Source: an uncultured Verrucomicrobiae bacterium (lineage in GTDB: Bacteria > Verrucomicrobiota > Verrucomicrobiia > Palsa-1439). From it: a stretch of DNA of 64,000 nucleotides. The translations under genes were made by a program, and so were the position numbers. Position 1 is the stretch's first letter. Each line of letters opens with the position of its first letter. The notes beneath the pieces were generated by a model, which made no database searches, had not been told where the DNA came from, and saw nothing but the letters and a program-made list of their open reading frames with translations. Where the stretch lies: assembly GCA_963817685.1 (NCBI GenBank), contig CAWFPN010000010.1, forward strand, positions 614,746 to 678,745. The letters are read 5' to 3'. Of the stretch, positions 12,839 to 21,272 are shown one piece after another.

Positions 12839-14039
12839 TTATTTGTCGCTCAATGCCGCGACGCCGGGCAGCTCCCGGCCTTCGAGAAATTCCAGCGACG
12901 CGCCGCCGCCGGTGGAAACGAACGTGACTTGCTTGTCCAGGCCCGCCTTCTTCAAGGCCTTCGCGCTGTCGCCGCCGCCGATGATGCTCGTGCAATTCTT
13001 GTTGTCCGCCACCGCCTGGGCGACCCCGAACGTGCCCTTGGAAAACTCCGGGACCTCGAAAATGCCCATCGGCCCGTTCCAAATGATCGTCTTGGCCGCG
13101 GCGATTTCCTTCTTGTAGCGTTCGATCGTCTGCGGCCCGATGTCCACGCCGCACCAGCCGTCTTCGATGCTCGGCCCGTCGGTGATCCGCGTCGTCGCGC
13201 CCGCTTTCGGCTCGGTCGCCTGCAGATGGTCCTGCGGCAACAGGAACTTCTTGCCCTTGGCCTTTTCCAGCAACGACTTCGCCATATCGAGCTTGTCGTT
13301 CTCGACGAGCGATTTTCCGATGCCAAATCCTTGTGACTTCAAAAACGTGTACGCCATCGCCCCGCCAATCAGCACCGCGTCGGCTTGTTAACAGGAGATT
13401 CTCGATGACCTTGATCTTGTCCGACACTTTCGCGCCGCCGATGATGGCCACGAACGGCCGCGCTGGATTGGCCAGCGTGCCGCCGAGATATTTCAATTCC
13501 TTCTCCATCAAAAACCCGGCCACGGCCTTGCCGCCGCGTTTCTTGATGATCTCCGCCGCCGCGTGCGTCGACGCGTGCGCCCGATGAGCGCTGCCGAAAG
13601 CGTCGTTGACGTAAATGTCCATGTTCTTCGCCAGCTTTTCGGCGAACACGGGGTCGTTCTTTTCTTCCTCGGCATAAAACCGGACGTTTTCCAGCAACAA
13701 AATGTCGCCCGGCTGCATGATCGCGACGGTGTTCTCCACCTTCTCGCCGATGCAATCGTCCACGAACGCCACCGGCCGCGACAACAATTCCGCCAGCCGT
13801 TGCGCCACGGGCCGCAAACTCTGTTTCGGATCGCGTTTGCCCTTCGGACGGCCCAGATGAGAACAAAGCACCACGCGCGCGCCGTTCTTCCACAAATACT
13901 CCAGCGTCGGCAGGGTCGCCTTGATGCGTTTATCGTCGGTAATCCCGCCGTTCTCGTCCAGCGGTACGTTATAATCCACGCGGACCAGCACCCGCTGACC
14001 GCGAAAGTCTTTCAAGTCATTGATGGAAAGTTTCGCCAT
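12839..14039 (-). pseudogene. pgk: Phosphoglycerate kinase with an apparent frameshift near 13385-13391 (probable sequencing error)
   Basis: [36 protein letters not shown] in one frame; [22 protein letters not shown] in the next. Confidence 0.92.
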
Positions 14040-14077
14040 ATTCTTCAAGCCTCTCCGTTGCTACGGGGTAGCCAGCG

Positions 14078-15705: not shown

Positions 15706-16218
15706 ATGAACCGAGAGGGAGCTTCTCTGTGTTGTGCCGTTGCGCTCGCGCTGCTGGCCGGTTGCGGCGGGACCAAGCCCATTCCGGTGGACCAGGTGCA
15801 GGTGACGGCTGTCAAAGCGGAGGATGTCATGCGCGTGGTCCACGCGCCGGGCGCCAAGGCGGTCCTGGTCAATATGTGGGCCACCTGGTGCGGCCCGTGC
15901 CAGGAGGAATTCCCGGACCTGTTGAAGGTGGCGCGACGAGATCAGCCGAAAGGGTTGCGGGTGGTGCTGGTGTCCAATGACGACGAGGCTGACCTGGCAA
16001 ACGTGAAGAAATTCCTGGCCGAGCGCGGGGTGGATTTTCCGGCGTACCTCAAGGCCCAGAAGGACAACGAGTTCGTCAACGGGATCGACTCGCGCTGGAC
16101 CGGCGCGCTCCCGGCGACGTTCATTTACGACGGCAACGGCAAATTGACGGATTTTTGGGAGGGACCGGGGTCATACGCCATGTTTGAGGAGAAAGTAAAA
16201 CCACTATTGAACCCATAA
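15706..16218 (+). CDS. TlpA-like thioredoxin-fold lipoprotein
   Basis: Lipobox LLAGC; VNMWATWCGPCQEEFP CxxC motif. Confidence 0.85.
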   Translation: MNREGASLCCAVALALLAGCGGTKPIPVDQVQVTAVKAEDVMRVVHAPGAKAVLVNMWATWCGPCQEEFPDLLKVARRDQPKGLRVVLVSNDDEADLANVKKFLAERGVDFPAYLKAQKDNEFVNGIDSRWTGALPATFIYDGNGKLTDFWEGPGSYAMFEEKVKPLLNP

Positions 16219-16262
16219 CCTGAGCGCAGTGTCGTATCTGTATGCTTGGAGGAACCATATAT

Positions 16263-16877
16263 ATGAGAACAAATCAAATCCGCATCGCAATCATCTGTGC
16301 ATCCGTCGCGCTGGCAGCGGCTTCCGCGAATACAGAAGCCCTGGAGATCGGCGGGAAGATCCCGCAGGCGACCGTTAAGATGCAAAATGTCGACGGCAAA
16401 CAGGTTTCCATCGCCGACGTGGCCGGGACAAAGGGCACGCTGGTGGTGTTCACCTGCAACCATTGTCCGTTCGCCAAAGCCTGGCAATCACGAATCGTTG
16501 AACTGGGCAACGCCTACCAAACCAAGGGCGTCGGCGTGATCGCCATCAACTCCAACGATCCGACCAACTACCAGGAAGACAACTTCGAAGTCATGCAGGC
16601 GCGGGCCAAGGAGAACGGCTTTCAGTTTCCCTACGTCGTGGACGGCACTTCCGACGTGGCGCGGGCCTTCGGCGCATCGCACACGCCCGAGGCGTTCCTC
16701 TTCGACAAGTCCGGCCAACTCGTCTATCACGGCGCGATCGATGACGACAAGGACATCGCCAGCGTCACCAAACATTACCTGCACGACGCCCTCGACGCGG
16801 TCGTCAACGGCACGCCCGTCCCGGTGAGCGAAACCAAGTCCGTCGGCTGCGGCATCAAGTTCCGCCCGAAAGCGTGA
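16263..16877 (+). CDS. Exported thioredoxin-family (AhpC/TSA-like redoxin) protein
   Basis: Signal peptide; VVFTCNHCPF, AINSND, YHGAIDD, SVGCGIK. Confidence 0.85.
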   Translation: MRTNQIRIAIICASVALAAASANTEALEIGGKIPQATVKMQNVDGKQVSIADVAGTKGTLVVFTCNHCPFAKAWQSRIVELGNAYQTKGVGVIAINSNDPTNYQEDNFEVMQARAKENGFQFPYVVDGTSDVARAFGASHTPEAFLFDKSGQLVYHGAIDDDKDIASVTKHYLHDALDAVVNGTPVPVSETKSVGCGIKFRPKA

Positions 16878-16911: not shown

Positions 16912-18659
16912 ATGATTGCGCGCGCGCGATTGCTGGTTTGCCTGGCCCTGGTCGGCCTGCTCTACGTCTTTCACGTCCATCTGAAGACGGCGAAGATCTT
17001 CGCCAACCCGGGCTGGAACGCGCAGGACGAGACCGGACAATTCTGGAGCGAGGCCGCCTTCCAGTACCGGTTCGCCAAATTCTTCGCCGAACATCCCGCC
17101 GCCGACTGGGGCCAACTCGCGCGCGACCGCGACGTGCAGCACCCGGACACGATCGACGACTGGGCGGAGTTCACCGTGGCGATGGAAGTGCCGGTGGGCG
17201 TGTTGTACCGCTGGCTGAAACCGGCCATGCCGTTTCACGTGTTCGTTGTCTGGTACGATTGTCTTGTCTCCAGCCTGTCGTTGTTCGCCGTGTTCCTGCT
17301 GGCGCGCGCGCTGTGGCGCAGCGATGGGGCGGGCGTGGTCGCGGCGCGTTGTACGCGGCGTTGTACCCGAGCTACGGGCGGACGGTGAAGAACCTGTTTC
17401 TGCGGGAAGACTTCGCGGTCCCGCTGCTGTTGTTCGCCCTGGCGTTCACCGTGCGCGCGTTGCAGGAACAGAAACGGCGTGACCAGATCGTGGCGGCGCT
17501 GTTCTGGCTGGCCGCGCTGGCGAGCTGGCATTTGACGCAGTTCGTGATGGCGCCGTTCGTGGCGGCGGCCGTGCTGGTGTACCTGGGTAAAGGCCGGACG
17601 CCGAGGCTGCCGTGGTTTGTGATCGTGCTCGCGGCGGGCACGCTGGCCATTCCTGTGCTGCGGGCAAAACAGGTGTATCTCTCGCCCACCCTGTGTGCGC
17701 TCTACGCGCTGGCGCTGGCGGTCTGGATCGACGGCGGACGGCGAAGGGCGATCAGGATCTTCGCGGGCTCGCTGGCGTTGTGTCTCCTGCTCGGCCTGCT
17801 GTTCCAGAAATCCACCGGCGAGTACGCGCACGTCTACGCCCTGTTCTTCGCCAAGCTGCATTTCCTCGGGATGAAACCGGCCGACCCGTCCCAGTTGCCG
17901 TGGGAAGCGCGGCTTTTATGGGAAGGGGCGTTTAACACGGCGACCTGGCAGGAGTTCAGGCACAGCCTGGCGTGGTGCCTGCCGCTGGCGGTGCTGGCGA
18001 TGTGGTTGACGCGGCGCGATACGGACGTCGCGGTGAGGATCTTCATCGTCTTTACGCTGCTGCTGTTTCCGCTGGCGTGGATGGTGGTGCGCTACTTCAC
18101 GTTCCTCGGGTTTACCGCGGCGGTGGTGGGGGCGGGGTTGCTGACCCAACGGTTTTGGTGGAAGACGGCGGTCTTCGCCGCCACGGTGGCGCAACTGGCG
18201 GGGTTGGACTTCCAGCCCTTGGAGCGCGTCCAGCCGGCGCCCGCCGAATACGTCCCGGTCGTGCGCTGGCTGAACGATCAGACGCCGAGTAACGCGGTGG
18301 TCCTGGCCACGATCACGGAATCGCCCGTGTTCTGGGCACATACCGGCCGCCCGATCATTCTGCACCCGAAATTCGAGAACCGGGAAATCCGCGAGCGCTA
18401 CCGGGAGTTCCTGGAAGCCATCTACGGCGGTGAGGACGGGTTTTATGAATTTGCGCGCCGCCACGGCGCCGACTATTTCATCTACGACACCGGCTTCCTG
18501 TTCGACGCCGAAGAATCGCGCCGCTACAAAGCCGACAAGCTCGGCCCGCTCCCACCCGATTGCGCCGCCGAACTGTTCCAGGACCATCCCGAACGGCTCA
18601 AGCACTTCACGTTGGAACTGGCCGCCGACCGGTTCTCCGTCTTTCGCCTGGCACGCTAG
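16912..18659 (+). pseudogene. GT-C fold glycosyltransferase resembling DPY19 C-mannosyltransferase; apparent -1 frameshift near 17347 (probable sequencing error)
   Basis: Multi-TM protein. FWSE..QYRFAK, LREDFAVP, WHLTQF and TGRPIILHPKFE..IRER match remembered DPY19 motifs in the same order. Confidence 0.7.
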
Positions 18660-20182
18660 CGCATCGTGACGTTGTGGAAGAGGATGTCGCCGTTGACTTC
18701 GAATCGCAGGCCGTCGACGTTGGCGCGGCAGGCGGCCAGGCTCTCGGCGTGGGCCAGGGGCACCATCGGCGCTTCCTTGTAGACGATCTATTGCGACTGG
18801 CGATACAAGGCCGCACGCTTTTCCGGGTCAAGTTCGCGCCGGGCGGCGATCATCAGGTCGTGATAGGCGTCGTCTTTCCAGAAGCAGATGTTGAGCGCCG
18901 AGCCGAGCGTGGCGGTGTCCTTGTCCAGCAGCACGTAGAGGAAGTTGTCCGCGTCGCCGTTGTCGCCCACCCACCCCAGCAACGCCATCTCGTGCTCGCC
19001 GTGACTGGTGCGGCTGAGGTGCGAACCCCATTCGTTCGGGACGATCTCGACGGGGATGCCGGCCTGCGCCAGGTCGGCCTTGATCATTTCCGCGGCCCGG
19101 AGGGGATTGGGCAGGTACGGGCGTGGATTGGTCATGACTTCGAGCCGCAGGGGGTGGTCCAACGGCATGGTGCGGGAAAGGCTGTAGCGCGCCGTGTCGG
19201 GGATTTCATCGTTGTAACCGCTGATGAACGGCGGCAGGGGATTCTTCGCGACAACGGCGGCCCCGCGATAAACGGCGGCCACCAGATCGGTCTTGTTGAT
19301 GCTGGCGGCGATCAAGTCGCGCAGGTTCTTGTTGTCCAGCGGCGGCTTTGAGCAGTTCAACGCGAGATAACAGACATTCATTCCGGCGCCGGTGACAAGC
19401 TTCAGCGCCGGGTCGTCTTTGATCGTGGGCTGATCGTTCGGGTCAATGCCGTCCATCGCCTGGACGTCGTCCGTCTGCAACTGGATCAGCCGCGCGGCGG
19501 AATCGGGGACAACCTTGAAAATCAGCCTCTGGATCTTCGGCGGCCCGTCCCAGTAATCGGCATTGGCCGACAGTTCGATCGTTTCGTTGGGCACCCAGGA
19601 GACGAACCGGAACGGTCCGGTACCCACGGGATGCCGCTGGTCGATGAACTTCGGGCTGATCAGGTAGGCGGGGAAAATCGCCAAGTCGGCCAGAAAAGGC
19701 GCCTGTGGTTCGCGCAGGCGAAACTCGAGCGTATCGGCATTAACGGCGCGCACCGACTCGACCATCCCGTACATCGCCGCCCAGTAGGCAAAGGTCGCCT
19801 GTTTCAGGTGCGCGGGATTCGACGGGTCCATTTGCCGGAGAAAACTGAACGCCGCCGCGGGAGCGTCCAGCAGCGTGCCGTCGTGAAAACGGACGCCCGG
19901 ACGCAGGTGGAACGTGTAGACCAGCCCGTCGGGACTGATCGTCCACGACGTGGCCAGGCAGGCTTCGATGGCCGAGGTGCCCGTTTTGAAGCGTACCAGG
20001 CCTTCGCAGATGTTGCTGAGCACCTTGACGGACTCGCCGTCATCCACGTCGGCGGGATCAAGCTTCTGCGAGTCCGCGCCCCGCGCGAAGACGAGGGTTT
20101 CCCCGCTCGGACCGCCGGGACGCCGGCAGGCCGCGGCCAGCAGGCAAAGGACGAAAGCGACGGTAAACAGCCGTTGTTTCAC
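18656..20182 (-). pseudogene. DppA-like peptide ABC substrate-binding lipoprotein with an in-frame TAG at 18788-18790
   Basis: GTG start, LAAAC lipobox, [27 protein letters not shown]. The frame continues after the TAG as IVYKEAPMVPLAH... to a stop at 18656. Confidence 0.82.
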
Positions 20183-20321
20183 GCGCGCCAGCCTAACGCA
20201 GCCGCCCGGCCGAGGCAAGCCGCCAACCGTCGGCCGCTGGTTGTTCTGGCTTGATTTCAAGATTCTTCTGCGCACAATCCCCGTCAATCCATCAGTGGAT
20301 GGGGAGAGCACGGTAAAACTT

Positions 20322-21272
<951 letters not shown>

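Follow-up and report, generated by a model that had tools for sequence, protein, structure and literature searches.

A bacterial DPY19-family gene in a Verrucomicrobial genome, probably broken by an assembly indel, and the acceptors its product may glycosylate

The stretch of DNA analysed here (the window) covers 64,000 nt of contig CAWFPN010000010.1 (positions 614,746 to 678,745, forward strand) in assembly GCA_963817685.1, from an uncultured Verrucomicrobiae bacterium. The gene in question lies on the plus strand at 16912-18659 and encodes a homologue of the tryptophan C-mannosyltransferase DPY19. It is spread over two overlapping frames. The first starts with the ATG at 16912, is closed by a stop at 17388 (158 aa) and carries FWSEAAFQYRFAK and D..QHPDTI. 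The second is open to the stop at 18659 and carries GRTVKNLFLREDFAVP, WHLTQF, YAHVYALFFAK and TGRPIILHPKFENREIRER. The frames meet at about 17340-17349, and the read-through product is 582 aa long. The first-pass annotation, made from the letters of the DNA, had listed these peptides and had assumed one gene with a frameshift near 17347. All the peptides were found in open reading frames (ORFs) and their translations in the order it gave, and the gene is indeed a single one split by a single-base length defect, one base short against a 99.8%-identical contig. The N-terminal part (16912-17346, +) encodes transmembrane helix (TM) 1, external loop 1 with the predicted catalytic Glu (E47 in FWSE) and TM2-4, and matches positions 31-134 of the Pfam Dpy19 profile. 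The C-terminal part (17347-18659, +) matches profile positions 158-284 and 509-590. It encodes GRTVKNLFLREDF (R157), WHLTQF (W206), external loop 5 (H307, K315, R334, W337 and F341), R394 and a periplasmic alpha/beta dome with RPIILHPKFENREIR. The GC content at third codon positions (GC3) was of the coding type when each half was read in its own frame (0.87 in the N-terminal and 0.86 in the C-terminal half; the wrong frames gave 0.42 and 0.64). The gene has a GC content of 65% and the window one of 61%.

The joined product had a single match in Pfam, Dpy19 (PF10034), with 71.9 bits and an E value of 4e-20, and the product of an intact allele (see below) reached 77.9 bits; the gathering cut-off of PF10034 is 27.2 bits. 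Pfam STT3 (PF02516) was not matched by the joined product at E<=1, nor were the ArnT/PMT families (PF02366, PF13231), and no NCBIfam model matched either half. All 169 close homologues (57-99% identical) carry PF10034, and those with a name are entered as 'hypothetical protein' of Verrucomicrobia metagenome-assembled genomes (MAGs). An exhaustive search for the family yielded 852 clusters (50% identity) at E<=1e-3 and 323 at <=1e-30. Many members are 750-970 aa long and end in C-terminal TPR domains. Among diverse bacterial members lacking TPR, Dpy19 was matched by 26 of 28 and STT3 by 2 of 28. A profile of bacterial members was compared with the PDB; it was built without the TPR-tailed members, whose TPR matches had swamped the search. 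The profile found C. elegans DPY-19 (CeDPY19) with 104.8 bits (E 3.9e-29) and STT3A with 70.3 bits, and a single-sequence phmmer search of the PDB gave a weak result (E 0.65). The hhalign probability was 99.1% against CeDPY19 and 99.8% against an alignment of 12 animal DPY19 proteins (E 3.7e-29, 547 columns). By these profile comparisons, the resemblance to DPY19 is far beyond chance. A recent transfer from a eukaryote was rejected: the gene has 65% GC in a 61% GC window and a GC3 of 0.87, and the bacterial family is deeply diverged, with 25-35% identity between clades.

The AlphaFold2 model (mean predicted local distance difference test, pLDDT, 70; predicted TM-score, pTM, 0.72) shows about 13 TM helices, with an alpha/beta domain at the C-terminus. 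Foldseek placed CeDPY19 (7zlh_A) at the top with an E value of 1.9e-15 and a TM-score of 0.77, followed by STT3 (TM-score about 0.69), AglB, PglB and ArnT (TM-score 0.33, E 3e-4); EmbB had an E value of about 1. The first-pass annotation had named DPY19 rather than ArnT, PMT or AglB as the parent family. The data agree with it: PF10034 alone was matched when set beside STT3 and PMT, CeDPY19 was the best structural match, and Pfam, profile search, hhalign and Foldseek all favour DPY19 over these families and PglB. The gene encodes a true bacterial DPY19-family protein, placed between DPY19 and STT3. As one part of the joint reading given below, the product is probably an inner-membrane glycosyltransferase of the GT-C fold (DPY19 family, PF10034, CAZy GT98), which in the model has about 13 TM helices and, at its C-terminus, a periplasmic dome.

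The protein was then mapped residue by residue onto CeDPY19. The closest known enzymes are the DPY19 tryptophan C-mannosyltransferases (C. elegans DPY-19 and human DPY19L1-L4; CAZy GT98; PF10034; PDB entries 7ZLG, 7ZLH, 7ZLI and 7ZLJ), and the functional roles of the CeDPY19 residues were taken from the structures in PMC10154233. Three alignments agreed on the mapping, and conservation was counted over 78 bacterial members. The catalytic Glu71 corresponds to E47 (78/78), and the motifs that the first-pass annotation had listed for DPY19, this Glu included, align as it proposed. The three residues that bind the donor phosphate, Arg211, Trp262 and Arg471, correspond to R157 (66/78), W206 (77/78) and R394 (78/78). 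The peptide-contacting dome loop His575-Arg584 (HPHYEHVGIR) reads HPKFENREIR here, so that the pattern HP-x-[YF]-E-x3-IR is kept, and Glu579 within it is E489 (75/78). In the pocket for Trp(0), Phe401 is F341 (68/78), Tyr578 is F488 (aromatic in 74/78) and Pro576 is P486, a position occupied by Ser in most bacterial members. The remaining pocket residue, Tyr395, is L336 (Leu or Met in the bacterial family). The Trp(+3) clamp Lys473 is F396 here and, in the bacterial family at large, varies between S, D, F, L and V, and Leu474, forming the bottom of the Trp(+3) site, is T or V. The acceptor-pocket comparison proposed in the first-pass annotation was thus answered in two halves: F341, F488 and P486 are kept, and Tyr395 and Lys473 are not. 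Lys473 acts as a cation-pi clamp on Trp(+3), and the K473A exchange nearly abolishes CeDPY19 activity (PMC10154233). Therefore, with Lys473 and Tyr395 lost, acceptor recognition must differ from that of animal DPY19. Overall, the mapping indicates that the catalytic and donor-binding core of DPY19 and part of its acceptor pocket are kept, and that the residues reading the WxxW sequon are not.

Both proteins share a 13-TM GT-C architecture with a C-terminal extracytoplasmic dome, and both lack the WWDYG motif. However, the bacterial protein is only about 16% identical to DPY19 and about 100 residues shorter, and the Cys407-Cys630 disulfide is not conserved in it. It has an invariant Trp of its own, W337 in external loop 5 (78/78), next to the position of Tyr395. 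It also has an extra acidic residue, D167, since it reads REDF where DPY19 has RESF; D167 aligns with the metal-binding Glu169 of STT3A. The bacterial enzyme would be periplasmic, so its carrier would be a bacterial polyprenol and not dolichol.

The break lies at about 17345, in a stretch of G and C only (17338-17349, +). An intact allele exists on Logan contig L016, from another sequencing run, which matches the window with 99.81% DNA identity over 4712 nt (8 mismatches and 1 gap) and has the same flanks. The single gap is the frameshift itself; it falls within the G/C-only run, where the window is one base shorter, and L016 encodes the gene in one frame. Outside this site, the intact product (P0001, 582 aa) and the read-through product of the window differ at two residues only. 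Among relatives' genomes with the gene, 20 of 20 have open frames of 580-660 aa, a genome of the same genus included. The source assembly is a MAG, 88% complete and in 29 contigs. Its sole phosphoglycerate kinase gene (pgk; 12839-14048, -), 3.5 kb upstream of the DPY19-like gene, is also frameshifted: its halves match Pfam PGK positions 2-204 and 210-379 in different frames, with the break near 13376-13395. The split pgk suggests that the MAG carries assembly indel errors. Because a 99.8%-identical allele is intact, all relatives are intact and the single-copy pgk is likewise frameshifted, we believe that the break in the DPY19-like gene is most probably an assembly indel and not biology. The first-pass annotation had reckoned with a frameshift that is real and fixed; the lesion is not fixed, since an intact and nearly identical allele exists. 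A true pseudogene in the source strain, produced by a biological one-base loss, is unlikely. The frameshift does stand in the assembly, the gene caller's product for this contig has only 424 aa (P0009), and the source of the intact allele is another, slightly different strain or sample (8 single-nucleotide polymorphisms in 4.7 kb). Nevertheless, no second lesion was found in the gene, the two amino-acid differences are the only ones outside the frameshift site, every family-invariant residue is retained in both halves, GC3 is unimpaired in both, and the like split in an essential single-copy gene points to assembly indels. Programmed ribosomal frameshifting, which would supply the -1 shift formally needed to pass from the upstream to the downstream frame, has next to no probability and was rejected: the junction has no X XXY YYZ slippery heptamer, and the 20 relatives and the near-identical allele all use one frame.

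Two thioredoxin-fold genes precede the DPY19-like gene on the same strand. The first (15706-16218, +) encodes a TlpA/DsbE/ResA-like thiol-disulfide oxidoreductase whose signal is of the lipoprotein type (LLAGC) and whose active site reads WATWCGPC; it matches Pfam AhpC-TSA, Redoxin and Thioredoxin, its NCBIfam TlpA/ResA/DsbE-like matches are all under the equivalog cut-offs, and it is conserved upstream in relatives. The second (16242-16877, +) matches Pfam AhpC-TSA/Redoxin and, weakly, DUF6436; its product has a signal peptide and the motif CNHC. The two are separated by 23 nt, and 34 nt lie between the second and the start codon of the DPY19-like gene. Downstream, a convergent gene (18788-20311, -) encodes an SBP_bac_5 (DppA-like) solute-binding protein by Pfam and NCBIfam; it stands at the same place in most relatives and is probably unrelated in function to the DPY19-like gene. 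It is followed by an SDR-type sugar-nucleotide epimerase/dehydratase gene (20322-21272, +), UDP-glucuronate-decarboxylase/ArnA-like, with Pfam GDP_Man_Dehyd and Epimerase matches and NCBIfam matches that are all under the equivalog cut-offs. These findings bear out the neighbourhood described in the first-pass annotation, namely two exported thioredoxin-fold genes upstream and a UDP-glucuronate decarboxylase-like gene nearby. Promoter and terminator scans gave results at chance level.

Synteny was counted in loci of one Verrucomicrobial family (56-78% identical proteins) with enough flank. Related loci were searched with the alignment of close homologues; the diverse alignment had no usable conserved stretch. 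Of 26 relatives' loci, 17 have thioredoxin gene 2 upstream of the DPY19-like gene and in the same orientation. Downstream, again on the same strand, 19 of 25 encode an exosortase (EpsH/XrtA-like), EpsI, a polyprenyl glycosylphosphotransferase that primes exopolysaccharide (EPS) synthesis (TIGR03025) and an SDR epimerase. The SDR gene of the window is 82% identical to its orthologue in locus L017 and is, in relatives, the last gene of this block. In the source genome, the exosortase EpsH/EpsI/EPS priming glycosylphosphotransferase block lies at C10:395591-398666, about 235 kb upstream. With the block relocated, the epimerase directly follows the convergent DppA-like gene, beside the DPY19-like/DppA pair. 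A second GT-C gene (Pfam PMT/PMT_2, with a weak Agl23-like match) lies between the DPY19-like gene and the exosortase at L017:10214-11530 and at the equivalent places in L039-L041; the source genome has no copy. Some relatives have a 60-aa 'hypothetical' gene downstream of the DPY19-like gene (L017:9906-10088, -) that matches the N-terminal region of the DppA-like gene (window 19967-20152); in L017 it appears to be a remnant after the rest was lost.

The DPY19-like family was present in 46 of 301 genomes sampled from the phylum. Exosortase was found in 33 of these 46 genomes versus 220 of the 301 overall, which is no enrichment; exosortase is almost ubiquitous in the phylum, so co-occurrence is uninformative. 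The family also occurs in Planctomycetes and WOR-3. The Planctomycete homologues are TPR-fused and have unrelated neighbours. A link to DsbD was rejected, as DsbD lies near one Pirellulales homologue and this was not repeated at a second. In a WOR-3 MAG (locus L057:7660-14504), two tandem DPY19-like paralogues with 38% mutual identity are separated by a small TPR protein, and after them come an AglJ/Dol-P-hexose-transferase-like GT2 gene and UppS (undecaprenyl-diphosphate synthase). Judged by its gene content, this locus looks like a compact donor-plus-transferase locus.

STT3/AglB/PglB (PF02516, GT66) is the second-best match by structure and profile (TM-score 0.69; 70 bits). E47 aligns with Asp49 of STT3A, D72..P78 resembles the external-loop-1 motif D-x-x-x-W-Y-P, and the thioredoxin-fold proteins encoded alongside are reminiscent of the subunits Ost3/Ost6 and MagT1/TUSC3. 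However, there is no Pfam STT3 match, WWDYG aligns to LATIT, and the phosphate-binding arginine pair is DPY19-like. This likeness of the pair suggests that the donor is a single sugar linked through a monophosphate, rather than an oligosaccharide on a pyrophosphate. The source genome has at least 4 GT2 ORFs that resemble AglJ/PpgS/ArnC polyprenyl-phosphate sugar synthases, all under the equivalog cut-offs, which makes a monophosphate-linked donor plausible. The GT2 gene and UppS beside the distant WOR-3 homologue point the same way. A further group, TMTC and the bacterial TPR-tailed GT-C protein O-mannosyltransferases, shares the C-terminal TPR of many wider-family members, and this suggests protein substrates. 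However, the Verrucomicrobial clade of the source has no TPR tail, no PMT/PMT_2 Pfam match was obtained, and these enzymes belong to another GT-C subclass.

In this study, we believe, by analogy with DPY19 and STT3, that the product is probably a glycosyltransferase that faces the periplasm, depends on polyprenyl-phosphate sugars and modifies exported polypeptides in the unfolded state. A single sugar would be taken from a polyprenyl-monophosphate carrier at the periplasmic face. The donor phosphate would be held by R157, R394 and W206, and E47 would serve as the catalytic acid/base. The sugar would pass to an extended, still unfolded stretch of an exported polypeptide, which would be gripped by external loop 5 on one side and the dome loop HPKFENREIR on the other. 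We infer a protein acceptor from three observations: both of the closest families act on unfolded peptides, the loop that contacts the peptide is conserved, and many members of the wider family have TPR tails. Ost3/Ost6 and MagT1/TUSC3 are oxidoreductase subunits of the eukaryotic oligosaccharyltransferase (OST); they delay oxidative folding, and acceptor sites stay accessible. The two co-oriented periplasmic thioredoxin-fold proteins may be the parallel of these subunits and may hold substrates reduced and unfolded in the same manner.

Several points weigh against the proposal of a glycosyltransferase for exported polypeptides. Sugar, carrier and acceptor are argued purely by analogy. The GT-C fold also covers lipid- or glycan-modifying enzymes. 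In the Verrucomicrobial family, the gene stands beside an exopolysaccharide/exosortase block, which would equally fit a glycan acceptor. The bacterial members have not kept Lys473 and Tyr395, which do not vary in animal DPY19, and the confidence of the structural model is moderate. The pseudogene discussed above, unlikely as it is, belongs to the same side.

The main rival is a non-protein acceptor: the enzyme would add a polyprenyl-phosphate sugar to exopolysaccharide, lipopolysaccharide or another envelope glycan within the exosortase-linked locus, in the style of ArnT or Emb. This is possible, and we hold it to be well short of probable. The downstream EpsH, EpsI, TIGR03025 transferase and SDR epimerase on the same strand in 19 of 25 loci would fit it, as would the PMT_2 GT-C gene found there in some relatives. 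However, the exosortase block is 235 kb away in the source genome, the Planctomycete and WOR-3 homologues have no exosortase linkage, and co-occurrence with exosortase at the level of the phylum is not above expectation. Moreover, the similarity to glycan- or lipid-modifying GT-C enzymes is far weaker (ArnT and EmbB, above), and the peptide-contacting dome loop is strongly conserved.

The function first suggested for the gene was C-mannosylation of Trp in WxxW/C sequons of exported proteins with polyprenyl-phosphate mannose as donor. From the residue map and the genome searches, this appears improbable in that form. In its favour, the residues for catalysis and donor binding are conserved, the Trp(0) pocket retains three of its four positions (Phe401 as F341, Tyr578 as F488 and Pro576 as P486), the full His575-Arg584 loop is present, and WATWCGPC of the adjacent TlpA-like protein is formally a WxxW sequon with a small +1 residue (Ala). 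However, WAxWCGPC is a generic thioredoxin motif and hence uninformative, and the sequon-reading residues are replaced (Lys473 by F396, Tyr395 by L336). Thrombospondin repeats (TSP_1, PF00090), canonical substrates of DPY19, were found in 0 of 21 genomes (the source and 20 relatives), in a search made without a positive control. In signal-peptide-like ORFs, the WxxW spacing shows no enrichment over other distances between two Trp residues (88 occurrences vs 80-99). Gly, Thr, Asn and Ser abound in the 16 PEP-CTERM-like ORFs, but Trp is scarce; WxxW occurs in 1 of 16, and the contexts of their Trp residues yielded no Trp motif.

A broader version of the idea fares somewhat better, although we regard it as speculative. 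The bacterial DPY19-like family may C-glycosylate Trp (or another aromatic residue) of exported periplasmic proteins at a non-WxxW sequon, with a bacterial polyprenyl-phosphate sugar as donor, and in this clade the two thioredoxin-fold proteins could be dedicated to holding the substrates unfolded. If this is true, eukaryotic DPY19 would descend from a bacterial enzyme class.

Protein C-mannosylation is described as occurring only in metazoa and alveolates (PMC6801728), and the literature searched yielded no paper on DPY19 homologues of bacteria. Pfam already tags bacterial family members automatically. Judged by alignment, the bacterial family is large and its catalytic machinery is kept, and Trp C-glycosylation by a bacterial enzyme is possible. 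Work on one characterised member would bring to light either a protein modification new to bacteria, which might be a C-C-linked glycan, or the way in which the DPY19 scaffold was re-aimed, and would also bear on the origin of the eukaryotic enzyme. The significance of this particular locus is modest, as it holds an ordinary family member broken in the assembly by a probable indel error. What it adds is a TPR-less Verrucomicrobial clade with an upstream thioredoxin pair, synteny with the exosortase block within the family, a residue-level map against CeDPY19 and a likely artefactual frameshift. Among the homologues, one protein of 905 aa (P0093) has Radical_SAM and BATS fused to Dpy19; the fusion may be real, or gene calling may have joined the gene to a neighbour.

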